Positions 3,120 to 29,571 are shown, counted from the first letter of the stretch. The stretch: 32,000 nucleotides of DNA from Candidatus Saccharimonadota bacterium (GCF_936981045.1 NZ_OW441264.1:870001-902000), one strand, 5' to 3'. The notes: generated from the sequence alone by a model not told the origin. Program-made: numbers and translations.

Positions 3120-3151
3120 GGGGTATGGGTGTATAGGAAATGAGTCTGTTA

Positions 3152-3391
3152 ACGTGATTTCGGGATTTATTTGACTGATTTACAACAATTTAATATCAAT
3201 TATTTAGTTAATATTTACACCTATTTAACAAGTTTTTATATCTAATTTTATAAATATAATATATATAATAAACTGATTATCAGAATTATTTGTTATTCAA
3301 CAACCTATTTAACTGTCTATAAAACAAATTTTATAAATTTTTATTAATATTGATTATCAAATGAAAAAATAATATAATCCCGAACTCACGT
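3152..3391 (+). mobile_element. 240-bp MITE, copy 1 (A-end to B-end orientation)
   Basis: Termini are ACGTGATTTCGGGATT ... AATCCCGAACTCACGT. It is flanked by a perfect 5-bp direct repeat TGTTA (3147-3151 and 3392-3396). The interior is AT-rich and non-coding. Confidence 0.88.
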
Positions 3392-3484
3392 TGTTATTGG
3401 ATGTTGTTAGTGGTTAATGTAGGTTACATTATACATAAAAATGAAAATTTTACACAAAATGACAGCTATGAAGTAGACGGCTTC

Positions 3485-3964
3485 CTACGCCGAAAAAACG
3501 ACGTCATGTTGTTCAAAAACCTCTGTAGTATGTTGTTGTTGCTGCTGTTGTTGTTGTTTGCGTTTGTGTTTGTGTTGCTGTTGTTGTTTGCGTTTGTGTT
3601 TCTGCTGTTGTTTGCATTTGTGTTGCTTCTGTTGCTGTTGGTTGTTGCTCTTGTTGTTGGTTTCTGCTGTTGTTTGCGTTTGTGTTGCTGTTGCTGTTTG
3701 CGTTTGTGTTGCTGCTGGTTGTTGCTCTTGTTTCTGCTTTTGTGGTTGTTGTGGTTGAGTAGGTGTAGATTGGGTGCCACTATTAAATCTTACCTCTATG
3801 GTGCTGTTAGGGTTTGTTGGGGTGACGGTGATAGATGTGCCGTCTTGGTTGGCCTGAAGGTTTGGATCCGTTGTCTCTATATACAGTATATTGTTCGGCC
3901 CAGTGCGCAGTTGGGCATAGGGGCCTACTAATGACATGATTACACATGGCTTTTTCTGACCCAT
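3485..3964 (-). CDS. Q/T/K-rich low-complexity protein, paralog of 9800..10558; possibly a pseudogene because the start codon of the signal-peptide region is lost
   Basis: The reading frame stays open upstream to 4068 and encodes a lipoprotein-like leader (IKFIFIQYFCLTFLIATNC). There is no ATG, GTG or TTG before the stop at 4070-4072. The first ATG, at 3964, lies after the leader. Confidence 0.4.
   Translation of the reverse strand: MGQKKPCVIMSLVGPYAQLRTGPNNILYIETTDPNLQANQDGTSITVTPTNPNSTIEVRFNSGTQSTPTQPQQPQKQKQEQQPAATQTQTATATQTQTTAETNNKSNNQQQQKQHKCKQQQKHKRKQQQQHKHKRKQQQQQQQQHTTEVFEQHDVVFSA
3527..3765. repeat. Imperfect GTT/GCT-rich low-complexity repeat (encodes a Q/K/H/T-rich tract on the minus strand)
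   Basis: Motifs of the form ttgtttgcgtttgtgtt and gctgttgttg recur. ORFs are open in several frames on both strands, which is typical of simple-sequence DNA. Confidence 0.6.
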
Positions 3965-4093
3965 TGGATCTGGTATGGGTAAGTTGCTTTTTTTAATACT
4001 GTTGCAATTAGTGGCTATTAAAAAGGTTAAGCAAAAATATTGTATGAATATAAATTTAATAGCATGGATTTAACTAGTATGGGTTATTTTGAT

Positions 4094-4116
4094 GGTTCTG
4101 TCGCGTCTATATTTTC
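4094..4116. mobile_element. Solo IS6-family terminal inverted repeat remnant
   Basis: GGTTCTGTCGCGTCTATATTTTC is identical to the first 23 bp of the B-type IS6 end at 16695. Similarity stops after that. Confidence 0.5.
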
Positions 4117-5148
4117 TTTTGTATAGCTCTTCTCTTTACGTAAAAAGAGGCGTTTTCTCTTGAAGTAGGCCCAATGGGAGCGAAGCTACAATATGACAAC
4201 ATTTATCCTTTTAATGTATAAAAACCAAATGATTTCGGTCGCCATCATGCAGCAAGTTTGAGCCTGCTACTCATATCTAGTTCGATTCGACTATATGGAT
4301 TTACATGATGGTATATCATCGGCGTTAACCTACGTCAGTTTTCATCTGTCATTTTGCTTCTTCACGATGGTTCTGACAAAACCCTCTGAATCAGAAGCGT
4401 ATTTATATACACCAGGCTAATCTGTAGTAAATGCAGTGACAGTATGGATATTTCCTGTTCCTCTGGTTTATTGGAGGTGAATTCACTATGATCACCATAG
4501 AAAATAAAATCATTGGCACTGTTCCAGTTTTCGACTACATTCAATCCAGTATTTATTTCATATCGTAATGATTCGTCGTTTAAATAACGACAGATAAAAA
4601 TGGTCTTAACTGTTTTGCCTAATTCGGTCAGTGCCTTGTATGTTGGATGTTGCGAATTATTCCGAGTAAATCTTCTTAATTATAGCTTGAGGCTCTGCCT
4701 TCCTGGTTCTAAGTGCTGTTGTGTATTTTATAATTTCATCATATTGTTGTCGGATCAGTTCCCAGTTTATTTCTCTTGCCAATATAGGTGATAGTTCAGG
4801 ATACAATACAGCATCACTGGAGGAACATAAATTGAGACCGTTGTGATAGGTCGATAGCATAATTTTTCTATTTTTCTAGCATTATTTTTTTGATTTTTAG
4901 TGTTATGGGTCTAAATATTCTTATTATTTATTGGTTTTCAGGTTTATTTCAGTTCATTTTTGATAGACCATTCGCCTAAACACCTTTTAATATGCTATTT
5001 GGCGACCTGTATAAATTATAGGCTATTGTGTCCAAAACGTGTTGTGTATGGGTTTTAGAAAGACCTATATAACGCGCTCTTGAACTTCGGAACTAACTTT
5101 TGATACTTCCAAATACGCGTTCCACCTTATACCGAGTTTGAGCTACTA

Positions 5149-5389
5149 ACGTGAGTTCGGGATTTATTTGACTGATTTACAACAATTTAATATCAATTAT
5201 TTAGTTAATATTTGCACCTATTTAACAAGTTTTTATATCTAATTTTATAAATATAATATATATAATAAACTGATTACCAGAATTATTTGTTATTCAACTA
5301 CCTATTTAACTGTCTAATAAAACAAATTTTATAAATTTTTATTAATATTGATTATCAAATGAAAAAATAATCTAATCCCGAACTCACGT
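5149..5389 (+). mobile_element. 240-bp MITE, copy 2
   Basis: Perfect termini ACGTGAGTTCGGGATT / AATCCCGAACTCACGT. TSD is TACTA (5144-5148 and 5390-5394). It is inserted in the IS5 transposase gene. Confidence 0.9.
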
Positions 5390-5910
5390 TACTAATTTAT
5401 TAAACCGCTTGGCAGTAGGTGATAAGGGATTATTTCTAGTAGCTTTCTTCTGCATAGCTGATTTTAAGGCTTTATTCTTTAATAAGGTTTCATTAGGTGA
5501 GCCGCTGTAGCCCTTATCTGCATATAGCCTACTACCTGCTTTTAGCTCTACTTTATCCAATAAGACGTGTAAATGAGCACTATCATGACTAGATGCTTTT
5601 GTGGTACTGACTGCTAGGACTAAGCCTTCTTTACTTTCCACAAGAACGTGTCGCTTATACCCATAGTAGAGATTATCTCCTTTTTTTGTCCAACTCGTTT
5701 TTGGATCTACACCTTTTTGATAACTTTCGGCTACAGTTATAGTGCCATCTTCATGGAGATCATAGCTTTTTTTACCTTTAGGCCGTCTAGGCGTGGGGGT
5801 AATAGAGGCATCAACAACTGCACCATGTTGAACGAGTACTCCATGTGCAGCTAGCTGATCATTAATGATTTTCAATAACTTTTCTAAGGCCTTTTGTTCG
5901 GTAAGGGAAG

Positions 5911-6743
5911 GGTTCTGTCGCGTTTATTCTAAAAAATGATTATTTTAGTATCGGTATTTAAAAAAGTAGTTATTATGTTTAATATTTCTCCCGAGTTATT
6001 ACCATATTTTAAAGGTTATTGTTCTTCATCAGAAGTCATCCTGTTATTTGTATACATGAAGTGTCGTTTTTCCTTGAGCTATAGAGATTTGGAAGAGATG
6101 ATGCGTATGAGAGGCGCAAGAGTTGATCATTCTACGCTACAGAGATGGGTTATTAAGTTTGTTCCTCTGATAGATAAAGCAGTAAGAAAAAGAAAACGAC
6201 CAATTGGTAGTAGTTGGAAAATGGATGAAACCTATGTTAAACTAAACGGGAAGTGGATCTATTTATATAGAGCAGTAGATCGTTATGGTGATACAGTTGA
6301 CTTTTTTCTATCTGATCATAGAGACAAGTCTTCAACGCTTTCTTTTTTTCGCAAGGCGATCACAGAAAATAATATTCCTAAGAAAGTAGTAATTGACAAA
6401 AGCGGTAGTAATAAAGCTGCCCTTGATGCGATCAATACAGATCTTGATCAAGATCATACCATTCAAATATTTCAAAACAAATATTTGAATAATAGAGTTG
6501 AACAAGATCATAGGTTTATCAAAAAACGGATAAAACCTATGCTGGGTTTTAAGAATTTTTATTCTGCTTCCATTACTATTTCAGGGATAGAAAACATTCG
6601 TATGATTCAAAAAGGACAAGTAAGAGGAGCTAAAAATCATCTTTCTACTTTTGAAAACTTTGCTATCTTAATGGCCGCATAATATCCAAAATTTGACTTA
6701 AACGAAAAACCTATACTAAGAAAACTATAGACGCGACAGAACC
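5911..6743 (+). mobile_element. IS6-family insertion sequence, A-type copy 1 (833 bp)
   Basis: Terminal IRs are GGTTCTGTCGCG ... CGCGACAGAACC. A perfect 8-bp TSD AAGGGAAG lies at 5903-5910 and 6744-6751; 8 bp is the IS6-family hallmark. It is inserted in the IS5 transposase gene. Confidence 0.92.
5975..6682 (+). CDS. IS6-family transposase (235 aa, apparently intact)
   Basis: IS26-like sequence: FKGY..SLSYRDLEEMM..VDHSTLQRWV, DETYVKLNGKWIYLYRAVD, NNRVEQDHRFIKKR. Start set at MFNISPE inside track ORF 5936..6682. Confidence 0.85.
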   Translation: MFNISPELLPYFKGYCSSSEVILLFVYMKCRFSLSYRDLEEMMRMRGARVDHSTLQRWVIKFVPLIDKAVRKRKRPIGSSWKMDETYVKLNGKWIYLYRAVDRYGDTVDFFLSDHRDKSSTLSFFRKAITENNIPKKVVIDKSGSNKAALDAINTDLDQDHTIQIFQNKYLNNRVEQDHRFIKKRIKPMLGFKNFYSASITISGIENIRMIQKGQVRGAKNHLSTFENFAILMAA

Positions 6744-7929
6744 AAGGGAAGTCCTAAATCTGCTTAATACACTATGATCTGGAACAGAACTATCCATCGA
6801 AATACCACAAAATCTGCTAAAAGTAATACGATCATTTACTTCTTCTTCTACTTGATAGTCACTGAGTGAATACCAGGTCTGAAGCAAGAGCATTTTAAAC
6901 AAAAGCAACGGACTATACGCTGGCTTTCCTGATAAATGTAAGCCTTTAGGGTAATATGAGCGGAGTAATTTTTCTACTGATGACCAATTAACTAGCTTAT
7001 TAATTTGATCAAAAAAGGTATGTTTGCATTTACCCCTGTTCGCTGAAATATCTGCCAAACTTAACTGACCACTTGTTTGAATTGCCATAACAATACTATT
7101 AAAAAGCTTAAGTATAAACGATTAAAGAAGTAACATAATTTAACCATTGTATAACACTAAAAGTCACTTTTTATACCAAAGCTTAAAACTCTATTGCAAC
7201 GGCCTCAAATTGAGTTTTTGCCTAGCAATGTTTTTTAGTCTGGGTAATAAGTCAAATCCAAGGATATAACTGAAAGAAAATGCTACTTCACTCTGTCCGT
7301 GACTGTCTACATACTGCTGATTTATTGCCATGTCAGTACAATGTCGAAGCACACCTTTCATCATGGCAGAAACCTCTGAGGAGGAACAACGGCGTATCTG
7401 AGAGTAAATACATGTTGAATTCGTATCAACATGCCAGTAAATCATCACGCCACGGCCACCATACCGGGCATGCCATTCCGTCATCAGATTCTGATCATAA
7501 GCACTAAATTTTCTGGAGTCTGCTGCACAAGACGTTGTTGCATTGCCCCAAATAGTGGGCTGTCTTATTTTGAATATCCCATTGACTATCTGCGATATAG
7601 CGGCTCTTAAGGAACCTTCTGAATAAATTTTCGTTTAATATAACGCAACTCTTCATAGCTGACGCTTGGTTGTTGACTAGCAATACGTTTTAGGCCGATA
7701 TTAGTTCCCAGACCGAATAAACATAACAGCAACCTCCATTGTAATATTTCAGGGTTAATGACCTCGCGACTTCCTGATGTTCTGAATAATGATGAAAATT
7801 TCTCCCGCAGGTCAACTTCCTTCAGTATATCAATTAATTCAAGATCAGCCCAGCGGTATCCAATTTCACGCTTCAGCTCCAATGTGTTTAGTGGTTCTTC
7901 TTTTCTGGTCAAAGGTGTCAAATGTATAC

Positions 7930-8169
7930 ACGTGAGTTCGGGATTAGATTATTTTTTCATTTGATAATCAATATTAATAAAAATTTATAAAATTTGTTTT
8001 ATAGACAGTTAAATAGGTAATTGAATAACAAATAATTCTGATAATCAGTTTATTATATATATTATATTTATAAAATTAGATATAAAAACTTGTTAAATAG
8101 GTGCAAATATTAACTAAATAATTGATATTAAATTGTTGTAAATCAGTCACATAAATCCCGACCTTACGT
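7930..8169 (-). mobile_element. 240-bp MITE, copy 3 (reverse orientation)
   Basis: TSD is TATAC (7925-7929 and 8170-8174). The A-end is degenerate (CCCGACCTTACGT). Removing it restores the Tn3 TnpA frame ..GKNCIHLTPLTRKEE.. Confidence 0.88.
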
Positions 8170-9799
8170 TATACAGTTCTTGCCATGGGTTCTGAGTCTG
8201 ACTTTCTGGTTTCGCGGAAGGCCATCGTTTAGGATACCGAGCCAATGACGCAGAGTGTTTTTAAACTGACAGATAAACTCTTCACCGTCTAATGGAACGC
8301 CAAGAAGGGAATAATAGTGTACCCTGTTATCACAAAAATCAGCAGGTAAATCCTCTTCAGGATTACGGTAACGATCAACTCCTTTTACCCAGATCTCTTT
8401 GTTCCTGAGACTATTTCTTAAAGCGCGTAATACACAAATTTCATAATTAATCCGGTTAATTTTTTCTTCGCCTTTTGCATTCAGTACAATAACAATATTT
8501 CTCCATTTCTTATTAATGATATAGTCAATAGGGACTTCATCAGTAGCATAATAACGTTGGTTGCTGTTTTTGTGGGTTTTTATTACGTTGATAGCATCAA
8601 TAACAGGTCTGTGTAAATGATTGCTAGACTCAAATTCCAGTTCTTCAAGTACGGGAAGTAAAATCCGACGGTAGTGTCTAGCATAAGATGACCGAATGGA
8701 TTCATGGACTTCAAGTTCTATATCGTTTCCTAGTGTTTTAAATTCATGGACAATCCGTTGCAGTGTTTTTTGGGTTACAACAGGATAAACTACTTCTTTT
8801 ATAATCCCGTCAGGTTGGTCAACTGTGGCTTCTGCCATTTGGAAAAGTAGATTGGCTTTCCCCCTTACTTTTTTGAATACAGAAAACTGTTTTTTGTCTA
8901 CTTTCTTTTCAGCTCGAGTTACCAGATTGTGGATCAACTGCATTAACATTTCAATCAATGCATCTGTCAATTGTTGTCGACGACGACAGCAATACATGAA
9001 AACCATTGGATAACGAATGCTATCCGGATGTCGTCGAATCTCCCTTACCGACTCTGTAGCACAACGCTGTCGGAATATTTCTATAAACTTTGGAGAAACA
9101 GCATGAATCAAATCAGAATGTAGCAATATGCTATCCAGAATTGAGAGCTGAGAGATAACAAAAAAATATTATAAAGGCTGGGTTTTCCCGGTTCTTTTTT
9201 TACATCCTTTCTAAAAGCGTTTTCTTTATTATCACACTCATCTGTGTTGTATCACTGAGTCTGGCATAAATGGAATTTAAAATCGTTGCTTCATAATGAT
9301 AAGTTGCCGAACGAACAACCCTTTCCAGATGTGCCATTGCCAGTGGTTCTGTTCGCTGATCACGGAACCAGTCAAGAGCAGCCTCTTTGGCATGAGGCGC
9401 CTTCGGATCCATAGGTAATACTTCAACACATAATCAGTTAAAAAGTTTTCTTAGTTCAGTATCAGAGGAAGGACGATATCCAAGTAAACGACAAATAGCC
9501 TGACGATGTCGTTGACCCTGGCGATCGGTAGGTTCGTACAAAGAAAAAATATTGTCAGGAACCCCGAGTTGTTGAGAAAAGTACTCAATAACATCAGAAC
9601 TGATATCCTCGACCGATCCAGGAAACTTGCCGTATACCTTCATAAATTTTAACTGGACAGAAAATCCAAAGCGACCTTTATCAGTCATGCTAGTCAATAA
9701 AGAAATTTGCCCTGGAGTCAATAGCCAGACATCTTTCCATTCAGATTTATCTTGCCAGTCATACATAAATATTCCAGTACCTGTGAATACTATAAGATA

Positions 9800-10558
9800 C
9801 TACTCTTCTTCTTGAAAGATGTCGCAAATGCCGTCATATTGTAGCTCCGCTTCCATTGGAAGTAACCAGTTTCTTGCCCATTCTTGGTCTTTGTTTTCGA
9901 TCTGTGGGGATGCATGTGGTTCGATCTGTGGTTCGGCATGTGGTTCGGCATGTGGTTCGGCATGTGGTTCGACCTGTGGTTCGACCTGTGGTTCGACCTG
10001 TGGTTCGACCTGTGGTTCGACCTGTGGTTCGACCTGTGGTTCGGCATGTGGTTCGGCATGTGGTTCGGCATGTGGTTCGGCATGTGGTTCGACCTGTGGT
10101 TCGGCATGTGGTTCGACCTGTGGTTCGACCTGTGGTTCGACCTGTGGGGATGCATGTGGTTCGGTCTGTGGTTCGGTCTGTGGTTCGGTCTGTGGTTCGG
10201 CCTGTGGTTCGACCTGTGGGGATGCATGTGGTTCGGCCTGTGGTTCGACCTGTGGGGATGCATGTGTTGTTGTTAGTGCTGGTGTGGTTGGTTTGTGCTG
10301 TTGTGATTGGTAGCTACTGTTCCTGCTGGTGTAGTTGTTGTGGTTGGTTTCTGCTGGTGTGGTTGTTGTAGTTATTTCTGCTGTTTCTGCTGTTGTGGTT
10401 TCTGTTATTGGTTGATTTTGTGTTGTTGTTGCATTATCCCCATCTATATCTGCAATTAATCTATCTGTTAGTCTATTTTTGCATTCAGCTCCAGTTAAAA
10501 CCACTATAGCAAAGTACAATGCAGTACGCTTTGAAAAGATTTTTATGTTGTGTTCCAT
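9800..10558 (-). CDS. Secreted or lipoprotein-like protein with a T-rich linker and a tandem (E/S)P(Q/H)(V/A) tetrapeptide array; the C-terminus is replaced by the Tn3 insertion
   Basis: N-terminus MEHNIKIFSKRTALYFAIVVLTGAEC is signal-peptide or lipobox-like. About 29 in-frame 12-nt repeats follow. The last 19 codons (..PMEAELQYDGICDIFQEEE) are read from the Tn3 IR. Confidence 0.6.
   Translation of the reverse strand: MEHNIKIFSKRTALYFAIVVLTGAECKNRLTDRLIADIDGDNATTTQNQPITETTTAETAEITTTTTPAETNHNNYTSRNSSYQSQQHKPTTPALTTTHASPQVEPQAEPHASPQVEPQAEPQTEPQTEPQTEPHASPQVEPQVEPQVEPHAEPQVEPHAEPHAEPHAEPHAEPQVEPQVEPQVEPQVEPQVEPQVEPHAEPHAEPHAEPQIEPHASPQIENKDQEWARNWLLPMEAELQYDGICDIFQEEE
9903..10262. repeat. Tandem array of about 29 x 12-bp units (ctgtggttcgac / atgtggttcggc variants)
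   Basis: The periodicity is directly visible. All six frames are open across the array. Confidence 0.9.
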
Positions 10559-13227
10559 TCTTAATAAGGTTTTCGTATGGTTTTCGATTGCTTTAATCGA
10601 TGCTTATATAGCTACCATCTAAGGTATAAGCCTATAAACTGGAGCTTGCAATACTTCATTTAGATAGCAATTTTAAGTAAGTTTCTATAATTATACAAAT
10701 ATCGCATATGGAAATTTTATATTATTTTTAAGTAGCAGAGTATTTTTATACTGAAATACAATTGGATAAATAAAGATTTTCGGTTTTGTCGCGTTTATTC
10801 TAAAAAATCATTATTTCAGTATCTGCAGTTAAAAAAGTAGTTATTATGTTTAATATTTCGCCCAAATTATTACCTTATTTTAAGGGCTATTGTTCTTCAG
10901 CAGAAGTCATCCTGTTATTTGTCTAGATGAAGTATTGTTTTTCCTTGAGCTATAGAGATTTGGAAGATATGATGCGTATGAGAGGCGCAAGAGTTGATCA
11001 TTCTACGCTACAAAGATGGGTTATTAAGTTTGTTCCTCTTATAGATGAAGCAGTAAGCAAAAGAAAACGACCAGTTGGTGGTAGTTGGAGAATGGATGAA
11101 ACCTATGTTAAACTAAACGGGAAGTGGATCTATTTATATAGAGCAGTAGATCGTTATGGTGATACAGTTGACTTTTTTCTATCTGAGCATAGAGACAAGT
11201 CTGCAGCTTTTTCTTTTTTTCGTAAGGCGATCACAGAAAATAATATTCCTAAGAAAGTAGTAATTGACAAAAGCGGTAGTAATAAAGCTGCCCTTGATAC
11301 GATCAATACAGAACTTGATCAAGATCATACTATTCAAATATTTCAAAACAAATACTTGAATAATAGAGTTGAACAAGATCATAGGTTTATCAAAAAACGG
11401 CTAAAACCTATGCTTAGTTTTAAGTGTTTTAAGTCTGCAGCCATTGCACGCCGGCACAGGTGTGCAACAAATGGGGTGTAAGTCCCCTGACTCTAATTTG
11501 TCTATTTCGGGAGTCTAGCAGGAGGTTGGATTTGTGGGGTGATTCACAGGTTTAAGTTACCTTTAAATGCATCTGCAAAATAGCGGGCTGCAACAAAAGT
11601 GAACCTAAATTAGCCTCGTTAAGCCGTTTAAGCGCATTTGCCGACTATCTAGTGGCTACAGGAAGGCTGATAGTAGGATGGAAAAAATAGACCATGACCA
11701 TCATACAAGTGCCGGGGTGTTAGGGGTTGCACGCTATGAATGTTTCACATCGTAGTCCGGGAGATCTGATATGAATCCAGTAGGCCACTGGAAACTTTAT
11801 TGTATAAGTAAAGCGAAATCAATAAGGGTGATATCAGAAGTCCGCGGGGTCTATAATACCGTTCGTATTGATTGGGAAACCACTCAAGAGGAAAGGGACC
11901 CTACTTCAGTTAACGAGTTTAAAAGAGTTGAGAATGTCTGATTGCCCTAAAGCTATGAACGGAACATTAAAAGTTCAGCAACTCCAAAGAACTCTATATC
12001 TCAAATCCAAGCAATGTAAGGAAGTCAGATTTTATAGTATATATGATAAAATTTATCTAAAAGATGTACTTTGGGAAGCTTGGCGTCAAGTCAAAGCAAA
12101 TCAAGGTTCAGCAGGGATTGATGGTAAAAGCATAAGTGATATAATAGATCAAGGTGAGGCAAAGATTATCAATAAATTGCAGCAGCAACTACGCGCAAAG
12201 CTATACAAATTTACCTCAAGCAGGTTGGTAGAAATACCCAAAGCTAAAGGTGGAACAAGGCCACTAGAGGTAATGACCGTAGAAGATCTCATAGTGCTCA
12301 CAGCAATGAAAATAGTCATTGAACCGATCTTCGAAGCTGATTTTCACGAATGTTCATACGGCTATAGACCGAAACGAGGAGCCAAACAAGCGAGTTTAGT
12401 GATCCGAGAAGATCTATACCAGCAGGCATGGGGCGTAGTTGAGATTGATTTTCAATCATACTTTATTAGCATCCCACACGAAAAGTTATTAAAACTTATT
12501 AGTAAAAGGATAGCAGATGGCAGTATGTTGAAGCTAATTAAACAAACCCTAACAACGTCAATAGTAAAACAAGGTAAAATTACATGCAAGAAAGTTGGAG
12601 TACCGCAAGGATCACCAATATCACCGTTGTATAGTAATATCTACCTAAATGTTATAGACCAAGTGTGGCACTCAAGGGGGTATCCAGAAAAGCTAAGCGC
12701 AACCTTGCATAGGTATTGTGATGATGCAATTTTGGTATGTCGTAAGAGTGCTAGCTTAGCGCTGGAGAAATTCACAGAATTAGTAAAGAGGTTATCGCTC
12801 ATTATTAACCACCAAAAGACACGAATAACGAAACTGAAAGAAGGCTTTAACTTCATAGGTTTTTACTTTGTAAAAAGAAAGAGTCCAACAAGTGGCAGAA
12901 ATAGCATTTATGTATTTCCAACGAAACAATCCCAACAAAGCATCCGTAACAGACTAAAATACCTGACTTGTAGAAGAGCACCAATCAAACCTCAAGCATT
13001 CATCGAGTAAATAAAACCAGTAGTGTTAGGATGGGTTAACTATTTTAAACATACGAATTCCAGTGAAGCTTTTGTTAGATTGCAGGACTTTATTAATAAC
13101 CGATTTCGCAGATACTTAACCACCTGAGTTCGGGATTAGCTTGTTAAAAAATAGCTTTAAAAAGTTCCTTTGTGTTTTAAATTTGGAGATAAAAAAATAC
13201 TAACCAGATTATCCAAAGGAGCCAGTT

Positions 13228-14357
13228 ATGAATGTAGAAAAGTTAGTTGAAATATATTATGCTGTTAATGAATTTCTCATAAAGTTTATGCCGTATATGG
13301 AAAAACAACTGTTAACCAACTCTAAAAGAAAACCCACTAGAATTTGTTCATTAACTTTGAGTGAAATAATGACTGTTCTTATTGCCTTTCATGTGATTGG
13401 TTTTAGAAATTTTAAGTCTTATTATATTCATTTACAGCAATTTCATTCTAGTGAATTTGGAAAGTTAGTAAGCTAGAATAGATTTATAGAACTGATCCAA
13501 AGAACGTTAGTTCCCTTGTACTGTTTTACACAAAGTCTTTCTAAAACAAAAACAGGTTGTTATTTTATGGATGCAACAGCCATCAAGGTTTGCCATATCA
13601 AAAGAGCCTATACGCACAGGGTTTTTAAATCGATTGCTACTAAAGGTAAAACCAGCACCGGTTGGTTTTTTGGATTAAAGTTGCACTTGATAGTCAATTA
13701 TTTAGGAGAAATTATGAATTTTCAACTGACCATAGGTAAAACTAATGATAGGCTTCCTGTAGAAAATTTGTGTAAACACTTCATGGGTAAAATGTTTGCC
13801 GATAAAGGTTACATAAGCAAAGATTTATTTGAAAAACTGATGGAAAAAGGCGTGGAACTCATTACCCAAATCAGAAAAAATATGAAAAATGCTTTTATGC
13901 CACTCTGGGATAAACTGATGCTTAGAAAACGATCTATAATTGAAACTATTATAGATCAGCTCAAAAATATTAGCCAGATAGAACATTCCAGGCATAGAAG
14001 CATACCTAATTTTCCAGTCAATTTGATAGCTGGAATTACAGCTTATGGACTAAAAGAGAAAAAACCTTCTATAACTAATATAACGTGAGTTCGGGATTAG
14101 ATTATTTTTTCATTTGATAATCAATATTAATAAAAATTTATAAAATTTGTTTTATTAGACAATTAAATAGGTAGTTGAATAACAAATAATTCTGGTAATC
14201 AGTTTATTATATATGTTATATTTATAAAATTAGATATAAAAACTTGTTAAATAAGTGCAAATATTAACTAAATAATTGATATTAAATTGTTGTAAATCAG
14301 TCGAATAAATCCCGAACTCACGTTAATATATATATGACTGGTTCACAATACGTCTAA
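13228..14357 (+). pseudogene. IS982-family transposase with an in-frame TAG (13474-13476) and a MITE near the 3' end
   Basis: Track ORFs 13228..13476 and 13516..14088 are in the same frame, reading ..GKLVS*NRFIELIQ.. where IS982 relatives have SYNRF. The core contains ADKGYIS and RHRS..NF. The last 9 codons are displaced to 14331-14357 by the MITE. Confidence 0.8.
14083..14323 (-). mobile_element. 240-bp MITE, copy 4 (reverse orientation), inside IS982 copy 1
   Basis: Termini are perfect. Comparison with the uninterrupted copy 2 gives a target duplication of AATAT (or TAATATA) within a TA tract. Confidence 0.88.
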
Positions 14358-14513
14358 TCCCGAACTGAGGTTAACCCATAGAAGAAAAGGCCGTGGGTGT
14401 GGGTGGCAAAGCTATCCCAATAGCAAACTCTATACAATGGGGATGTTGTAATTGGTAGTGGAATGATTAAGTATCCTGAGAAAGTTGTGCGAGGTTTATG
14501 AAGAAGACTGCCG

Positions 14514-14548
14514 GACCGCCGTATTCGGGAAAACTGAACGTACGGTGA
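14514..14548 (+). ncRNA. Group II intron domain V
   Basis: GGACCGCCGTATTCGGGAAAACTGAACGTACGGTGAG has paired arms CCGTAT../..ACGTACGG around a GAAA-type loop. The catalytic triad reads CGC. Confidence 0.7.
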
Positions 14549-14856
14549 GATGAGAAGGGAATGGGTAAACAATGAAGAATCAAGTTAGTCAGTTACTGTA
14601 TTGCGAGCAATCAGAAGCAATAGATATGCTTAATTTTAAGTGTCCACCCATTTCTTTACTCTAGACCATTGCAGGGATAGAAAACATTTGTATGATTCAA
14701 AAAGGACAAGTAATCGGAGCTAAAAATCATCTTTCTACTTTTGAGAATTTTGTTATGCTAATGGCCGAATAATAATCAATATATATCCAAAACTTCACTT
14801 AAAAGAAAAGACGTTACTAACGAAAATATAGACGCGACAGAACCTCCAAATGGGTA

Positions 14857-15333
14857 CTAACTTTTTAAAAAATTAGCTATTTGCATTAATTTTTCATCTG
14901 ATTCCCGTTCTGCATCGTGAGAGGAAATGTAACCAGGATATCTGTCAAATTTAGTTTTAATAGTGGTTGCAAGCCTCTTCCAGCTACCATCTTTGGTTCC
15001 ATGCAGAGGGATCAATTTAGCATGTAAGTGGTTAACGCCATACCCTTCAAATACAAGAGCTGTTCTCTCAACGGTTGGAAATTTATGGACCAACAAGTCG
15101 GACACTTGTTTGGCTGCTCCCATTAAGTCATTGATCTCTTCTGATGCATGATCAAAAATATAACTGCTCAGGTGGTGCTTAGGGATCACCACTGTAAACC
15201 CTTCTGTATTAGGAAATATGGATAGAAAAGCCATATAATCTATATCCTCCCATATTTTATTAGAAGGTGCCAATCCTGCTACAATCTTACAAAAAACACA
15301 TTCTTGTGTGGATACATCAGTAGGTAAGTGCAT
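14857..15333 (-). CDS. HIT (histidine triad) family protein
   Basis: N-terminal CVFCKIVAG and a histidine-triad-like motif NHLHAKLIPLH in a 158-aa ORF. The third His of HxHxH is not conserved. Confidence 0.7.
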   Translation of the reverse strand: MHLPTDVSTQECVFCKIVAGLAPSNKIWEDIDYMAFLSIFPNTEGFTVVIPKHHLSSYIFDHASEEINDLMGAAKQVSDLLVHKFPTVERTALVFEGYGVNHLHAKLIPLHGTKDGSWKRLATTIKTKFDRYPGYISSHDAERESDEKLMQIANFLKS

Positions 15334-15568
15334 GGTATCTTAGGTATGTTATCTTTGCTTGCAATCTTTTTAATCATCTATTTGCTTCAACTGGCCAAAC
15401 TACCGTTAAAAGTAATCAATAGTTTAGACTACATTAGACGCTTTAAATTTAGTCAACAAATCTAAACAAATCAAGCTTAGTATAAGCTATCCCACCATCT
15501 ATTGCGTAGATAGAGGCGACCCCAAAAAATGGACCGTTTCAGTTGACACTCTTTCCTGAATAGTGATC

Positions 15569-16630
15569 CTATTGATATATGGCATTTTGGATAGCTACTT
15601 GTTGTGCTAGCATTGCAGCAATTTTATTAAAAGGCATAATTGGTTTATAGGGCATGGTACCTAAATCGCCCTGTTGGCAAATCATGGAAAGCAGTGGAAT
15701 TTGGCCTAAAAAAGGTATGGATTCGTTTTCTGCTAGCAGTTTGCCCCCATCCTTTCCAAAAATATAATATGGATTGCTTGCATCTTCTTTTTCTGTTAGA
15801 AAATAAGACATATTTTCTATCAATCCCAAGATGGGCACTTTGATTTGTTCTTTTTTAAACATAGCAATTGCCTTTATGGCATCGATTAATGCAATTTTTT
15901 GCGGTGTAGTAACCACTACAGCGCCTGTAATGGAAACCGTTTGCACCAAAGTAAGATGAATATCACTGGTGCCGGGGGGAAGGTCAATCAATAAATAGTC
16001 TAATGCACCCCAATCTGCATCCTGTAATAATTGCTTAAAAGCCGCACTGGCCATAGGCCCACGCCATACAATGGCCTCTTGCATATTGGATAAAAAGCCA
16101 ATAGAAAGCAACTTCACATTATGACGGTTTATAGGAATGATATGGTTCTTGCCGTCCCGTTTGACCACAGTTGGTTTGGTGGTTTCGCAACCCCACATGG
16201 TAGGAATAGATGGCCCAAATATATCCGCATCTAAAAGTCCTACATACGCACCATGGTTGGATAGTGCAAGCGCCAAATGTGTAGCAATGGTAGATTTGCC
16301 AACGCCACCCTTTCCAGAAGCAACAGCGATAATATTTTTGACGCCAGGCAGTATAGAAGAGGATCGGGAACGTCCCGAAGTGACTGTTGATGTGAACGTA
16401 ATTACAATTTCAAAATCATCTATTACCTCTTGACGAATGGCTTGTATACATGCCTGTTTTATCATTTTTTGTAATGGGCAGGCTGGGGTAGTCAGTATAA
16501 TGGTAAAAGAAATGGTAGCGCCATCTATATACAGCTGATCAATCATTCCCAAGGACACTAAATCTTTTTTTAAATCAGGATCATCTACCTTACGTAAAGC
16601 TTCTAATACCCTTGTTTTTAATGTGTTCAT
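15569..16630 (-). CDS. apbC: Fe-S cluster carrier ATPase Mrp/ApbC (N-terminal DUF59-like domain plus ParA-type P-loop)
   Basis: The deviant Walker A VASGKGGVGKST is present. The protein is 353 aa and similar to Mrp/NBP35 throughout. Confidence 0.88.
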   Translation of the reverse strand: MNTLKTRVLEALRKVDDPDLKKDLVSLGMIDQLYIDGATISFTIILTTPACPLQKMIKQACIQAIRQEVIDDFEIVITFTSTVTSGRSRSSSILPGVKNIIAVASGKGGVGKSTIATHLALALSNHGAYVGLLDADIFGPSIPTMWGCETTKPTVVKRDGKNHIIPINRHNVKLLSIGFLSNMQEAIVWRGPMASAAFKQLLQDADWGALDYLLIDLPPGTSDIHLTLVQTVSITGAVVVTTPQKIALIDAIKAIAMFKKEQIKVPILGLIENMSYFLTEKEDASNPYYIFGKDGGKLLAENESIPFLGQIPLLSMICQQGDLGTMPYKPIMPFNKIAAMLAQQVAIQNAIYQ

Positions 16631-16694
16631 GATTGTCTGTTTCAGTTCATCGTACGCATTTGGCCCTTATATTATAGATAGGTGGATAACATCC

Positions 16695-17538
16695 GGTTCT
16701 GTCGCGTCTATATTTTCGTTAGTAACGTCTTTTCTTTTAAGTGAAGTTTTAGATATATATTGGGTATTATTCGGCCATTAGCATAACAAAATTCTCAAAA
16801 GTAGAAAGATGATTTTTAGCTCCGATTACTTGTCCTTTTTGAATCATACAAATGTTTTCTATCCCTGCAATGGTAATGGCTGCAGTCTTAAAACACTTAA
16901 AACTAAGCATAGGTTTTAGCCGTTTTTTGATAAACCTATGATCTTGTTCAACTCTATTATTCAAGTATTTGTTTTGAAATATTTGAATGGTATGATCTTG
17001 ATCAAGTTCTGTATTGATCGTATCAAGGGCAGCTTTATTACTACCGCTTTTGTCAATTACTACTTTCTTAAGAATATTATTTTCTGTGATCGCCTTACGA
17101 AAAAAAGAAAAAGCTGCAGACTTGTCTCTATGCTCAGATAGAAAAAAGTAAACTGTATCACCATAACGATCTACTGCTCTATATAAATAGATCTACTTCC
17201 CCTTTAGTTTAACATAGGTTTCATCCATTCTCCAACTACCACCAACTGGTCGTTTTCTTTTGCTTACTGCTTCATCTATAAGAGGAACAAACTTAATAAC
17301 CCATCTTTGTAGCGTAGAATGATCAACTCTTGCGCCTCTCATACGCATCATCTCTTCCAAATCTCTATAGCTCAAGGAAAAACGACACTTCATCTAGACA
17401 AATAACAGGATGACTTCTGCTGAAGAACAATAGCCCTTAAAATAAGGTAATAATTTGGGCGAAATATTAAACATAATAACTACTTTTTTAACTACAGATA
17501 CTAAAATAATGATTTTTTAGAATAAACGCGACAGAACC
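16695..17538 (-). mobile_element. IS6-family element, B-type copy 2 (844 bp)
   Basis: IRs GGTTCTGTCGCG (16695) and CGCGACAGAACC (17538). The flanking 8-mers differ (TAACATCC against TAAGAATG), so there is no TSD. Confidence 0.88.
16767..17474 (-). pseudogene. IS6-family transposase with two in-frame TAG codons
   Basis: TAG at 17394-17396 occupies the Tyr codon of the A-type (the same change as in copy B1). TAG at 17193-17195 occupies a Trp position (GKW becomes GK*). The rest is in frame through to 16767. Confidence 0.85.
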
Positions 17539-17870
17539 TAAGAATGATCCCAAAGGAATTGAAACCTTTTTAGCTCAACTTGATAAAACAACGCATCACT
17601 GTGTCTTAGAAGCCACAGGCAACTATGTCGCTTTATTACTGCAGATACTTACAGAGCATGAAATAGTTGTGTCGATGGTCAATCCCAAGCAAACCAAACA
17701 TTTTGCTCGGATGATGCTAGTTATAACCAAAACCGATAAGGTAGATGCCCAACTTATTGCCCTTGATGGAGAAAAGATGCAACCTGCCCCTTACAGAATG
17801 CTTCCCCAAAATATACAAGGGTTAAATCAACAAAAAACGCTTCTTGTTCAGCTAAAAAAACAACTTACTA

Positions 17871-18110
17871 ACGTGAGTTCGGGATTTATTTGACTGATTT
17901 ACAACAATTTAATATCAATTATTTAGTTAATATTTGCACCTATTTAACAAGTTTTTATATCTAATTTTATAAATATAATATATATAATAAAATGATTATC
18001 AGAATTATTTGTTATTCAACTACCTATTTAACTGTCTATAAAACAAATTTTATAAATTTTTATTAATATTGATTATCAAATGAAAAAATAATCTAATCCC
18101 GAACTCACGT
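17871..18110 (+). mobile_element. 240-bp MITE, copy 5
   Basis: Termini are perfect. TSD is TACTA (17866-17870 and 18111-18115). Removing it restores ..QLKKQLTMFYNLLES.. in frame. Confidence 0.9.
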
Positions 18111-18512
18111 TACTATGTTCTATAATCTGCTAGAGTCTTTTAATGTGTTGCCTCAAGCAGATGACTTCGCCTTAAGAACACTCAAGGAAACTATAGCCTG
18201 CCTGGAAGAACAGATAGAGCTTCTGGAGCAACAAATGCTTTCTATCACCCAGGAGAGCTATAATGAGCTCTATAAGCGCATTAGTTCTATTAAGGGCATT
18301 GGAGATAGAACCGCTCTGCAGCTTATTGTTTCCACTGGAGGGGGGGAACATTTTCAAAGGGCTAAACAGTTTTCTAAGTTCATTGGCTTAGCTCCTAGTT
18401 ATGAGCATTCAGGCTCTTCCATAAGGAAGAAGGGGCATATCAACCGTCATGGGAACTCCCAGCTGCGTTCTTTGCTCTATATGGCTTCTTGGTCTGCTAT
18501 ACGGTTTAATAA

Positions 18513-18753
18513 ACGTGAGTTCGGGATTAGATTATTTTTTCATTTGATAATCACTATCAATGAAAATTTATAAAATTTGTTTTATTAGACAATTAAATAG
18601 GTAGTTGAATAACAAATAATTCTGGTAATCAGTTTATTATATATGTTATATTTATAAAATTAGATATAAAAACTTGTTAAATAAGTGCAAATATTAACTA
18701 AGTAATTGATATTAAATTGTTGTAAATCAGTCAAATAAATCCCGAACTCACGT
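18513..18753 (-). mobile_element. 240-bp MITE, copy 6 (reverse orientation), without TSD
   Basis: Termini are perfect, but the flanks differ (AATAA against GATTA). The flanking IS110 coding segments are not contiguous. Confidence 0.85.
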
Positions 18754-18955
18754 GATTAGACAAGTGTTTGCTATTCTTAGGGACCATACTTGCTATATTG
18801 ATGGGTACCTTTCTAAGCTGAAAGTAACTTCTTAGCAGTTAAGAGAAGACTTTTAGGAGCATCTTAAAGCGCTCTTGTTTGAGATTAATGAACCAAATAA
18901 TTATAAAAATTTCTACGATCAGATTTGTTTTTTAACATAGTTCGTATATAGTTAC

Positions 18956-19498
18956 TTGTTGGATAAATATTGGGTCAACGCTGGTACAACAAAGCAGGTG
19001 CATGTACCTAAACCGAATCAAGTTTGGAGTGGGGATATTACTTATATTCGCACCAGTATTGGGTTTATCTACCTCTCAGCTATTATAGATTGGCACAGTA
19101 AAGCCATATTGAGTTATAAGGTATCCAATACTATGGATACAACGCTTGTAATAGATACCTTGCAAGAGGCACTGAGTAAATATCCTCCACCAGAATGCTT
19201 TAATAGTGATCAAGGCAGTCAATATACTAGTCATAAGCATACAGACTTATTAAAAAGGCATAATATTCAAATTTCTATGAATGGCAGAGGTAGAAGCATT
19301 GATAATATTGTAATGGAAAGATTTTTTACAACCCTAAAATATAATTCCATATTTATCAATGATTTTAAAAATATTAAAGTGTTAAAAGAGGGAATTAACA
19401 GGTACATTACTAAATACAATTACCAAAGGTTTCATTCTAGTATTAACTATCAAAAACCTATGAACGTCCATCTTAACCATGTAAAATTGGTAGACTAG
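18956..19498 (+). pseudogene. IS3-family transposase OrfB (integrase core) fragment, with orfA and the N-terminus missing
   Basis: VWSGDITYIRT..YLSAIIDWHSKAILSY, NSDQGSQYTS, MNGRGRSIDNIVMERFF and YNYQRFHSSINYQKP are DDE/rve-type motifs. Confidence 0.75.
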
Positions 19499-19560
19499 CA
19501 AATGGGAAAAAATAGAAAATAAAATTAAGAAAAAAATGTCCGAATAAATCAGTCCAGTAT

Positions 19561-19749
19561 AGTCTTTCTAAAACCCATACACAACACGTTTTGGAAGCAA
19601 TAGCCTATAACTTATACAGGTCGCCAAATAGCATATTAAAAGGTGTTTAGGCGAATGGTCTATCAAAAATGAACTGAAATAAACCTGAAAACCAATAAAT
19701 AATAAGAATATTTAGACCCATAACACTAAAAATCAAAAAAATAATACTA
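19561..19749 (+). mobile_element. 3' end fragment of the IS5-family element (same family as 4834..7206)
   Basis: It is the near-identical reverse complement of about 4866-5064 and includes the last transposase codons ..LSKTHTQHVLEAIAYNLYRSPNSILKGV*. It is cut off by IS982 copy 2. Confidence 0.8.
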
Positions 19750-20751
19750 ACCCCAGTTCGGGATTAGACGTATTGTGAACCAGTCATATATATATTAGTT
19801 ATAGAAGGTTTTTTCTCTTTTAGTGCATAAGCTGTAATTCCAGCTATCAAATTGACTAGAAAATTAGGTATGCTTCTATGCCTGGAATGTTCTATCTGGC
19901 TAATATTTTTGAGCTGATCTATAATAGTTTCAATTATAGATCGTTTTCTAAGCATCAGTTTATCCCAGAGTGGCATAAAAGCATTTTTCATATTTTTTCT
20001 GATCTGGATAATGAGTTCCACGCCTTTCTCGATCAGTTTTTCAAATAAATCTTTGCTTATGTAACCTTTATCGGCAAACATTTTACCCATCAAGTGTTTA
20101 CACAAATTTTCTACAGGAAGCCTATCATTAGTTTTACCTGTGGTCAGTTGAAAATTCATAATTTCTCCTAAATCATTGACTATCAAGTGCAACTTTAATC
20201 CAAAAAACCAACCGGTGCTGGTTTTACCTTTAGTAGCAATCGATTTAAAAACCCTGTGCGTATAGGCTCTTTTGATATGGCAAACCTTGATGGCTGTTGC
20301 ATCCATAAAATAACAACCTGTTTTTGTTTTAGAAAAACTTTGTGTAAAACAGTACAAGGGAACTAACGTTCTTTGGATCAGTTCTATAAATCTATTCTAG
20401 CTTACTAATTTTCCAAATTTACTAGAATAAAATTGCTGTAAATGAATATAATAAGACTTAAAATTTCTAAAACCAATCACATGAAAGGCAATAAGAACAG
20501 TCATTATTTCACTCAAAGTTAATGAACAAGTTCTAGTGGGTTTTCTTTTAGAGTTGGTTAACAGTTGTTTTTCCATATACGGCATAAACTTTATGAGAAA
20601 TTCATCAACAGCATAATATATTTCAACTAATTTTTCTACATTCATAACTAGCTCCTTTGGGTAATCTGGTTAGTATTTTTTTATCTCCAAATTTAAAACA
20701 CAAAGGAGCTTTTTAAAGCTATTTTTTAACAAGCTAATCCCGAACTTAGGT
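19750..20751 (-). mobile_element. IS982-like insertion sequence, copy 2 (1002 bp, uninterrupted)
   Basis: Ends are ACCCCAGTTCGGGATTAGACG (19750) and GCTAATCCCGAACTTAGGT (20751). The flanks are TACTA and TATAA, so there is no TSD. Confidence 0.88.
19764..20645 (-). pseudogene. IS982-family transposase with the same in-frame TAG as copy 1
   Basis: Track ORFs 20397..20645 and 19764..20357 share one frame. TAG at 20397-20399 is at the identical codon position (..GKLVS*NRFIEL..). Confidence 0.8.
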
Positions 20752-20863
20752 TATAAAGCAGGTGCTAAGGCCAGATTCAGGCATTCAGATTAGATTATTT
20801 ATTTAGTTTTCAATTAAATGAATTTGATGCAATTGGGGTAAACCGCATTAGAAATTATGGGTA

Positions 20864-21103
20864 ACGTGAGTTCGGGATTTATTTGACTGATTTACAACAA
20901 TTTAATATCAATTATTTAGTTAATATTTGCACCTATTTAACAAGTTTTTATACCTAATTTTATAAATATAATATATATAATAAACTGATTACCAGAATTA
21001 TTTGTTATTAAACTACCTATTTAATTGTCTATAAAATAAATTTTATAAATTTTCATTGATATTGATTATCAAATGAAAAAATAATCTAATCCCGAACTCA
21101 GGT
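20864..21103 (+). mobile_element. 240-bp MITE, copy 7
   Basis: TSD is GGGTA (20859-20863 and 21104-21108). The B-end carries one substitution (CTCAGGT). It lies 117 bp upstream of the nrdB start. Confidence 0.88.
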
Positions 21104-21220
21104 GGGTAGTGTTGAACCTTTGGTTGCATTTAGCTAAGTTTGTTGTACACATCAGTTTATGGCCTTAATTATAGCCTTAAATTATATGCCACTTACCAAC
21201 TCGTAAAACGAAAAAATCAA

Positions 21221-26223: not shown

Positions 26224-27230
26224 TGACCATGTCACTACCCAACTTTATTGATCACGTTAAGCTTTACCTACGCGCTGGAAAAGGAGGAGCTGGACGCATC
26301 CATTTCGTACGTGCCAAGTTTGTTCCAAAAGGAGGACCAGATGGAGGAGATGGTGGCCAAGGGGGCCATATTATTTTACGTGGTGTCAAACAGTATGGAA
26401 CTTTACTCCATCTCAAATACCGAAAACATATCATTGCAACCAATGGGAAACCCGGTGGTGATAGCTGCAAAACAGGCGCCAGTGGAAAGGATGTGATTAT
26501 AGATGTGCCATTAGGCACAGTAGCCAAAAGAGCAGATCATGACGAGGTATTGGTAGAGGTATTGGAGGACAAAAAAAAATATATCTTAATGCAAGGAGGG
26601 AAAGGTGGTTGGGGCAATACCCACTTTAAAACCCCTACCCATCAAACACCTCGTATTGCTTATCCAGGAGAAGCTGGAATGGAGGGTTGGATGGTATTGG
26701 AATTAAAATTATTGGCTGATGTAGGCCTTGTAGGACTACCGAATGCAGGTAAATCTACGCTGCTTTCGGTTGTATCAGCGGCTAAGCCCCGCATTGACAG
26801 CTATCCGTTTACTACTTTAGTACCCAACCTTGGTGTAGTAGCCTATCGAGCGCACCATTCTTTTGTAATGGCAGATATTCCAGGGATTATAGAGGGCGCA
26901 GCAGCTGGAAAGGGTTTAGGTACACGTTTTCTACGCCATATTGAACGCAATGCAGTCTTACTATTTATGGTTAGCGTAGAATCTAATGATATCAATAGGC
27001 ATTATAAAATGTTGCTGCGCGAACTGGAAGTACATCATCCCTTATTGCTAGCCAAACCCAGGCTACTGGTTGTTTCAAAAATAGACTTGCTAGACCAAGC
27101 AACACGTAAAACTTTATTACAAAACTTACCTAAAGGCATAACATGCTGCCCTATTTCTGCTAGTACGGGAGAAGGTATTGTACGCCTTAAAGACTTCATC
27201 TGGGAAAAACTTGCTGCAATAAAATCATGA
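26223..27230 (+). CDS. obg: GTPase Obg/CgtA
   Basis: An Obg fold with glycine-rich repeats (GKGGAG, GGPDGGDGGQGG), G1 GLPNAGKST and G3 DIPG. Its ATG overlaps the adk TAA by 1 nt. Confidence 0.9.
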   Translation: MTMSLPNFIDHVKLYLRAGKGGAGRIHFVRAKFVPKGGPDGGDGGQGGHIILRGVKQYGTLLHLKYRKHIIATNGKPGGDSCKTGASGKDVIIDVPLGTVAKRADHDEVLVEVLEDKKKYILMQGGKGGWGNTHFKTPTHQTPRIAYPGEAGMEGWMVLELKLLADVGLVGLPNAGKSTLLSVVSAAKPRIDSYPFTTLVPNLGVVAYRAHHSFVMADIPGIIEGAAAGKGLGTRFLRHIERNAVLLFMVSVESNDINRHYKMLLRELEVHHPLLLAKPRLLVVSKIDLLDQATRKTLLQNLPKGITCCPISASTGEGIVRLKDFIWEKLAAIKS

Positions 27231-27382
27231 TTTAAGCTTTGGTAAGATATAGTTAATAAATGCCTTGCAATCAGCGCTATATTTAAGCTTTGGTAAGATA
27301 TAGTTAATAAATGCCTTGCAATCAGCGCTATATTTAAGCTTTGGTAAGATATAGTTAATAAATGCCTTGCAATCAGCGCTAT
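27230..27382. repeat. Three perfect tandem copies of a 51-bp unit
   Basis: The unit ATTTAAGCTTTGGTAAGATATAGTTAATAAATGCCTTGCAATCAGCGCTAT occurs at 27230-27280, 27281-27331 and 27332-27382. The first base of the array is the last base of the obg stop codon. Confidence 0.92.
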
Positions 27383-27392
27383 AGTAACATAC

Positions 27393-28284: not shown

Positions 28285-28669
28285 ACCTCAGTTCGGGATT
28301 AGACGTATTGTGAACCAGTCATATATATATTAGTTATAGAAGGTTTTTTCTCTTTTAGTGCATAAGCTGTAATTCCAGCTATCAAATTGACTAAAAAATT
28401 AGGTATGCTTCTATGCCTGGAATGTTCTATCTGGCTAATATTTTTGAGCTGATCTATAATAGTTTCAATTATAGATCGTTTTCTAAGCATCAGTTTATCC
28501 CAGAGTGGCATAAAAGCATTTTTCATATTTTTTCTGATCTGGGTAATGAGTTCCACGCCTTTCTCGATCAGTTTTTTAAATAAATCTTTGCTTATGTAAC
28601 CTTTATTGGCAAACATTTTACCCATGAAGTGTTTACACAAATTTTCTACAGGAAGCCTATCATTAGTTT
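28285..28669 (-). mobile_element. IS982-like element, copy 3, 3' fragment truncated by IS6-A2
   Basis: It starts with ACCTCAGTTCGGGATTAGACG and encodes the C-terminal 113 aa. Homology to copy 2 stops exactly at the IS6 IR (28670). Confidence 0.85.
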
Positions 28670-29502: not shown

Positions 29503-29571
29503 CCGCATAATATCCAAAATTTGACTTAAACGAAAAACCTATACTAAGAAAACTATAGACGCGACAGAACC
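29503..29571 (+). repeat. Tandem duplicate of the last 69 bp of IS6-A2 (a second right end)
   Basis: 29503-29571 repeats 29434-29502 exactly (CCGCATAATATCC...GACGCGACAGAACC). Confidence 0.9.

Follow-up and report, generated by a model that had tools for sequence, protein, structure and literature searches.

We found that the 32,000-nucleotide stretch NZ_OW441264.1:870001-902000 (assembly GCF_936981045.1; hereafter the window, in whose own numbering all positions are given) carries seven repeats of about 240 bp, and that these are MITECca01, a MITE (miniature inverted-repeat transposable element) of the endosymbiont Cardinium. The finding is correct but already published: the element was named, with the insertion sequence (IS) ISCca4 as its parent, in the description of genome OW441264 by Halter, Hendrickx, Horn and Manzano-Marin in 2022 (Microbiol Spectr 10:e02627-22; PMC9769881). 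The best explanation, to which we assign a probability of roughly 0.9, is that the copies are non-coding elements with ISCca4-like termini, moved in trans by an ISCca4-type transposase. The insertions themselves are real; they disrupt IS5, Tn3, IS110 and ISCca4 elements or have landed in short intergenic spacers.

Identity of the repeats

The host was matched through NrdA of the window, which is 100% identical to a protein of 'Cardinium endosymbiont of Oedothorax gibbosus', and the published host strain is the spider symbiont Cardinium cOegibbosus-W744x776 (PMC9769881). The MITECca01 and ISCca4 sequences given in Fig. S1 of that paper match the elements of the window, allowing for text-extraction errors. 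As published, MITECca01 is ~240 bp long, and its inverted repeats resemble those of ISCca4, an IS982-family element (PMC9769881). Its 169 copies make up 3.5% of the chromosome and are found for the most part between genes or within other mobile elements; the MITE is itself rarely interrupted and was not found by these authors in other Cardinium genomes, whereas ISCca4 was counted at 68 copies, of which the 7 intact ones were considered likely to maintain the MITE (PMC9769881). A MITE in a maternally inherited endosymbiont was stated to be previously unreported (PMC9769881). The window holds seven of the 169 reported copies, and these show no essential difference from the published element: organism, length (240 bp), 16-bp inverted repeats, the sequence AGATTATT adjacent to the left inverted repeat (IRL), internal sequence and proposed parent are the same, as are the intergenic or mobile-element location and the rarity of interruption.

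Copies and termini

A search of the whole window with the 16-mer ACGTGAGTTCGGGATT, allowing up to 3 mismatches, returned 19 matches, where shuffled sequence would give 0.08. The seven MITE copies account for fourteen of these with their two ends each, and the remaining five are ends of ~1-kb IS982-like elements, the ISCca4 copies described below. Together with alignment, this mismatch search places the copies where the initial annotation had put them (Table 1), each uninterrupted, 240-241 bp long and bounded by the 16-bp inverted repeat. Perfect termini number 11 of 14, and the substitutions that had been claimed are present: one in copy 1 (in the terminus 3152-3167), two in copy 3 (both in the terminus 8154-8169) and one in copy 7, whose terminus 21088-21103 reads ACCTGAG, as in the IS. 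Copies 3, 4 and 6 lie opposite to copies 1, 2, 5 and 7; after reverse-complementing the former, all seven align over their full length, with pairwise identities of 94.6-98.8%. Their G+C content is 18-21% in total and 14-17% internally. As had been annotated, the element has no open reading frame (ORF), in that none of 80 amino acids or more lies inside any copy and the ORFs touching copies enter from the flanks. Using blastn with one copy, we recovered just the seven full copies and no fragments in the window. Alignment also bore out the sub-variants noted earlier, with copies 4 and 6 sharing CACTT, AACATA, an extra A and AATTG, and copies 6 and 7 sharing TTTTCATTGATA.

Insertion signature and target sites

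All five perfect 5-bp target-site duplications (TSDs) of the initial annotation were recovered (Table 1). The chance of identical 5-bp flanks around a random 240-bp segment is 0.0019, and thus five of seven gives P about 5e-13. For copy 4, AATAT/TAATATA had been proposed; the TAATATA part stands, as a 7-bp duplication, and the 5-bp version does not fit. When the flanks of copy 4 are joined minus one TAATATA, the product is identical to ISCca4 copies b and c, which are intact and unoccupied at this site, and the C-terminus of the transposase is restored. Similarly, removal of copy 2 with one duplication restores an IS5 transposase frame (...AKRFNKLVAQTRYKVERVFGSIKS), removal of copy 3 with one duplication gives a single continuous Tn3 transposase ORF (...RTHGKNCIHLTPLTRKEEPL...), and removal of copy 5 with one duplication restores an IS110 transposase frame (...LKKQLTMFYNLLESF...). 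In-silico excision thus restores four different transposase frames (IS110, Tn3, IS5 and IS982), and the seven copies sit in seven different flanking contexts. A 2-bp TA duplication, suggested by TA...TA flanks of other Bacteroidota elements, is ruled out for the Cardinium copies, both by the perfect 5-bp repeats and by the comparison of copy 4 with its empty site; the other elements turn out to have 7-bp TANNNTA duplications. No empty site for copy 7 was obtained from the Cardinium of Philonthus spinipes (L001), the closest relative available for comparison, where homology upstream of nrdB ends ~7 bp short of the MITE position and rearrangement has affected the upstream side.

At copy 6 the duplication is absent, apparently because about 28 IS110 codons have been lost beside it: in an alignment with six full-length IS110 homologues, these transposase codons are missing exactly at the junction. 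This suggests either that sequence next to the MITE was deleted or that two MITE copies recombined.

The same insertion evidence bears on the idea that the repeat is a non-transposable host sequence, of the repetitive extragenic palindromic (REP) or regulatory type, which recombination has dispersed or which is under selection for a role such as that of a promoter, terminator or small RNA. Two copies do lie 32-36 bp upstream of the housekeeping genes miaA and nrdB, and the strand folds better than shuffles (z = -3.5), a result driven by the terminal stem. However, the target duplications and restored frames show insertion, five of the seven copies lie inside other mobile elements, and the orientation is mixed, four versus three. 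Functional readings were also rejected because the MITE matches no Rfam family, the Bacteroidota-type -7 box TAnnTTTG is absent on either of its strands, and the fold signal is that of the terminal stem alone. We therefore regard a host repeat of this kind as extremely improbable; the duplications and the restored frames leave practically no room for a functional repeat that does not move, and nothing in the evidence here points to a cellular function of MITECca01.

The target sites of the MITE follow an asymmetric rule. When copy strands are set by the published orientation (IRL being the ACGTGAGTTCGGGATTAGATTATT end), a TA abuts the end opposite the IRL-type end in six of seven MITE copies, and a TA likewise abuts the right inverted repeat (IRR) end in all three ISCca4 copies of the window. 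Given a TA frequency of 0.092 in the window, the resulting nine of ten corresponds to P = 4e-9. The target form is NNNTA, with the TA on the same side in MITE and IS, and copy 6 is the exception. Moreover, TACTA is the target of two MITE copies and a flank of two ISCca4 copies. This shared asymmetric rule provides independent support for a common transposase of MITECca01 and ISCca4.

The IS982-family partner and the probable source of transposase

The partner fits the IS982 family: it is 1002 bp long, its ORF matches the Pfam transposase domain DDE_Tnp_1_3 (PF13612, 2.4e-69), its homologues are named IS982 family or ISCca4, and its ends begin with ACC. IS982-family ends in ISfinder typically begin with AC. 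ISCca4 was first named in the Cardinium strains cEper1 and cBtQ1, and the transposase of the window elements is 82% identical to that of cBtQ1 (P0127). The named ISCca4 and the window elements are alike in being IS982-family elements of 1002 bp with ends ACCTNAGTTCGGGATTAG and a 5-bp duplication. The three copies in the window (Table 1) are 97.7-98.5% identical to one another. The 5-bp duplication TAACC that had been reported for copy a is confirmed, and reads GGTTA with the IRR end on the left.

The initial annotation had held that the MITE termini are near-identical to the ends of this element, and our results agree. Within the window, the 16-bp terminus is shared only with the ISCca4 ends, with 1-3 mismatches, and no other IS end matches it within 3 mismatches. 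MITE and IS also agree at 21 of the first 24 nt of the IRL-type end. Duplication length also matches, being 5 bp in ISCca4 copy a and in five MITE copies, with 7 bp in one MITE copy.

ISCca4 would be the autonomous partner of MITECca01, and all three of its copies in the window are defective: copy a carries an in-frame TAG in place of Tyr83 and is interrupted by MITE copy 4, copy b carries a TAG at the same codon, and copy c is truncated. Any transposase must thus come from elsewhere in the genome. By protein search, an intact 293-aa IS982 family transposase (P0121) is annotated in the same genome, that of 'Cardinium endosymbiont of Oedothorax gibbosus'. This protein shares 99% identity with the conceptual translation of ISCca4 copy b and has Tyr at codon 83. 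A second IS982 transposase variant of the same genome (P0122) is 89% identical.

Table 1. Copies of MITECca01 and ISCca4 in the window; flanks in the last column are given left/right in one orientation
Element	Position	Strand	Location or structure	TSD or flanks	Flanks in one orientation
MITECca01 copy 1	3152..3391	-	Intergenic, 32 bp upstream of miaA start (3119, minus strand)	TGTTA, 3147-3151 and 3392-3396	TGTTA/TGTTA, perfect 5 bp
MITECca01 copy 2	5149..5389	-	Inside IS5-family transposase gene	TACTA, 5144-5148 and 5390-5394	TACTA/TACTA, perfect 5 bp
MITECca01 copy 3	7930..8169	+	Inside Tn3-family transposase pseudogene	TATAC, 7925-7929 and 8170-8174	GTATA/GTATA, perfect 5 bp
MITECca01 copy 4	14083..14323	+	Inside 3' end of ISCca4 copy a	TAATATA (7 bp), 14076-14082 and 14324-14330	TATATTA/TATATTA, 7 bp
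MITECca01 copy 5	17871..18110	-	IS110-family transposase gene, between DEDD_Tnp_IS110 and Transposase_20 domains	TACTA, 17866-17870 and 18111-18115	TACTA/TACTA, perfect 5 bp
MITECca01 copy 6	18513..18753	+	Near 3' end of same IS110 transposase gene as copy 5	No TSD, flanks AATAA / GATTA	TAATC/TTATT, no duplication
MITECca01 copy 7	20864..21103	-	Intergenic, 36 bp upstream of nrdB start (21140)	GGGTA, 20859-20863 and 21104-21108	GGGTA/GGGTA, perfect 5 bp
ISCca4 copy a	13122..14371	+	~1002 bp without the MITE; IRL ACCTGAGTTCGGGATTAGC, IRR ACCTCAGTTCGGGATTAGACG	TAACC, 13117-13121 and 14372-14376	
ISCca4 copy b	19750..20751	-	1002 bp, uninterrupted; in-frame TAG at codon 83	Flanks TACTA (IRR side) and TATAA (IRL side), no perfect TSD	
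ISCca4 copy c	28285..28669	-	3'-terminal 385 bp with IRR; truncated by IS6 copy starting at 28670	IRR flank TACTA	

The premature TAG lies at 13474-13476 in copy a and at 20397-20399 in copy b, where intact homologues have Tyr (LVSYNRF). Both copies otherwise keep a 293-codon open frame and differ by ~2%. The nonsense allele was apparently copied, either because a dead IS was mobilised in trans or through gene conversion. Copy b also lies against the end of an IS5 fragment (19558-19749).

Proposed mode of mobilisation

The shared terminus, the target rule, the restored frames and the intact transposase annotated in the genome support the earlier proposal that the repeat is a non-autonomous, IS982-derived MITE probably mobilised in trans. 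In the proposed mechanism, one of the few ISCca4 copies that are still intact in other parts of the genome would supply an ISCca4-type DDE transposase, which would bind the 16-bp termini and would insert the element through a staggered cut. The cut would duplicate 5 bp, occasionally 7 bp, of an NNNTA target, with the TA placed against the end opposite the IRL-type end. We infer mobilisation by ISCca4 in trans from these features, and likewise a gain in copy number, which implies a replicative or repair-assisted mode.

Several observations weigh against this explanation. The third terminal position differs, with ACG at 13 of 14 MITE ends and ACC at each of the five ISCca4 ends of the window, so that the cognate transposase could come from an IS982 variant that differs slightly from ISCca4. 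Apart from ~24 nt at one end, the MITE does not resemble ISCca4 internally; an origin by simple internal deletion of ISCca4, for which similarity beyond the termini was sought, is not supported. The copies diverge by up to 5.4%, three have mutated termini, and some may no longer be mobile. In addition, all three ISCca4 copies of the window are dead, and activity of MITECca01 is something that we infer from sequence.

The difference at the ends raises the alternative that the MITE is driven by an IS982-family transposase other than that of the window ISCca4, for example the P0122 variant, whose own ends would perhaps read ACGTGAG. Besides the G at terminal position 3 (13 of 14 MITE ends, none of five IS ends), the annotation of that second transposase in the same genome argues for such a driver, as does the frequency of ACGTGAGTTCGGGATT termini in other Bacteroidota elements. 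Yet the published ISCca4 consensus ends also begin with ACC, and no IS982 type besides ISCca4 was reported for this genome (Table 1 of PMC9769881). Considering further that copy 7 has an ACCTGAG end and that the target rule is identical for ISCca4 and the MITE, we find a separate driver quite unlikely.

Alternatively, the family may be a fossil, spread earlier by an IS982 transposase and now consisting of immobile repeats that act as passive substrates for recombination. The divergence of 1.2-5.4%, the substituted termini of three copies, the association of copy 6 with a deletion rather than a clean insertion, and the death of all local ISCca4 copies, two by the same nonsense codon, would be in keeping with this. 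Against it stand the 11 of 14 perfect termini, the five perfect duplications and the exact one of copy 4, the intact transposase annotated in the genome and the seven intact ISCca4 copies that have been counted (PMC9769881). On balance, extinction of the family seems rather doubtful, and mobilisation in trans by an ISCca4-type transposase is preferred.

In the main text of the 2022 paper, in which we looked for direct repeat, target site, duplication and TSD, there is no mention of duplications or of a target preference (PMC9769881). The duplication and target details therefore count as minor additions and not as a new finding: the exact 5- and 7-bp duplications, the asymmetric NNNTA rule tying MITE to ISCca4, and the one deletion beside a MITE, at copy 6. 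Further additions are the defective state of all three ISCca4 copies of the window and the hint, given below, that similar IS982-type MITEs recur in other Bacteroidota.

Nesting and relative age

The nesting of MITE copies in IS5, Tn3, IS110 (twice) and IS982, as described in the initial annotation, is confirmed. From this nesting, and from the statement that nothing is ever inserted into a MITE, the element had been taken for the youngest mobile layer. The statement is true in the window and carries little weight, because the copies occupy just 5.3% of it and few insertions into them are expected. As to age, the order of insertion is established at four loci, where the MITE is the later arrival; a generally younger layer is not supported by divergence, since the MITE copies (94.6-98.8% identity) differ among themselves at least as much as the ISCca4 copies do (97.7-98.5%).

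Multiple nesting is seen in the Tn3-family transposase pseudogene, which is fragmented and occupies about 4362-9766 of the minus strand. Inside it lies an IS5 element (about 4870-7100), which in turn carries an IS6 copy (5911-6743) and MITE copy 2. There are thus three levels, Tn3 containing IS5 and IS5 containing both IS6 and MITE copy 2, and copy 3 is inserted directly in the Tn3 gene. A Tn3-type element is listed as single-copy, under the name ISCca15 (PMC9769881).

Related termini in other Bacteroidota

MITEs derived from IS elements are known in other bacteria, such as the Correia element of Neisseria, RUP of Streptococcus pneumoniae and Nezha of cyanobacteria. These resemble MITECca01 in being short, non-coding and multi-copy, with inverted repeats matching an IS, TSDs and presumed mobilisation in trans. 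Unlike them, MITECca01 has an IS982 partner, a very AT-rich interior and a maternally inherited endosymbiont as host.

A 26-nt MITE pattern had no match in species-representative genomes, and a 21-nt terminal pattern matched 16 loci in species-representative genomes and 38 in metagenomes. Across these 16 and 38 loci, blastn with the full MITE matched the termini alone, over up to 43 nt, and revealed no second host of MITECca01. Many of the matches, in diverse Bacteroidota metagenome-assembled genomes and metagenome contigs, belong to unrelated elements of 110-400 bp with a ACGTGAGTTCGGGATT terminus (loci L012, L024, L028, L039, L049, L050, L051 and L052 among them), which may be further families of IS982-type MITEs. 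Several have clean 7-bp TANNNTA duplications and one has a 5-bp duplication, TATTA. In view of the 7-bp duplications found there, that of MITE copy 4 is unsurprising.

These matches suggest that IS982-type MITEs arise repeatedly in Bacteroidota. It is tempting to go further and to propose, tentatively and at somewhat less than even odds, that ACGTGAGTTCGGGATT marks a wide range of IS982-driven MITEs in the phylum, for the most part undescribed, which would use staggered 5- or 7-bp (TA)NNNTA targets and of which MITECca01 would be one lineage-specific case. If this is true, the end sequence of MITECca01 would be older than the O. gibbosus lineage, which would speak against an origin confined to that lineage.

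A solo end was observed in Candidatus Cardinium sp. cBcalN2 (L003, contig_67, 3524-3551), where 28 nt are identical to the IRL end of MITECca01 and the flank is TAGTA; no partner end lies within 8 kb. This hints that the end variant of MITECca01 is not confined to the O. gibbosus strain.

Other features of the window

The window is chromosomal, with clpX, clpP, miaA, mrp, nrdB, nrdA, adk, obg and mgtE, and is crowded with mobile elements. Besides the Tn3 pseudogene and its insertions, it holds several further IS6 copies, an IS110, an IS3 fragment and a group II intron. The intron (11470-13010) lies immediately upstream of ISCca4 copy a, with an Rfam match to domains D1-D4 at 11470-11598 and a reverse-transcriptase ORF at 11868-13010, and is preceded by a truncated IS6 copy at 10779-11445.

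Tandem repeats are also present. A long 12-bp array of at least 26 units at 9836-10314 lies in a minus-strand ORF (9800-10558) and encodes repeats of the PQVEPHAE type. Related to it is an array at 3526-3767, which has a 24-bp period and lies in overlapping ORFs beside MITE copy 1; the two arrays are 69-75% similar to each other. At 27215-27383, a 51-bp unit (67-nt register) is repeated three times in tandem, from the 3' end of obg into the downstream spacer. Finally, at 29434-29571, the terminal 69 bp of an IS6 copy of the ISCca2 type are tandemly duplicated with 100% identity.

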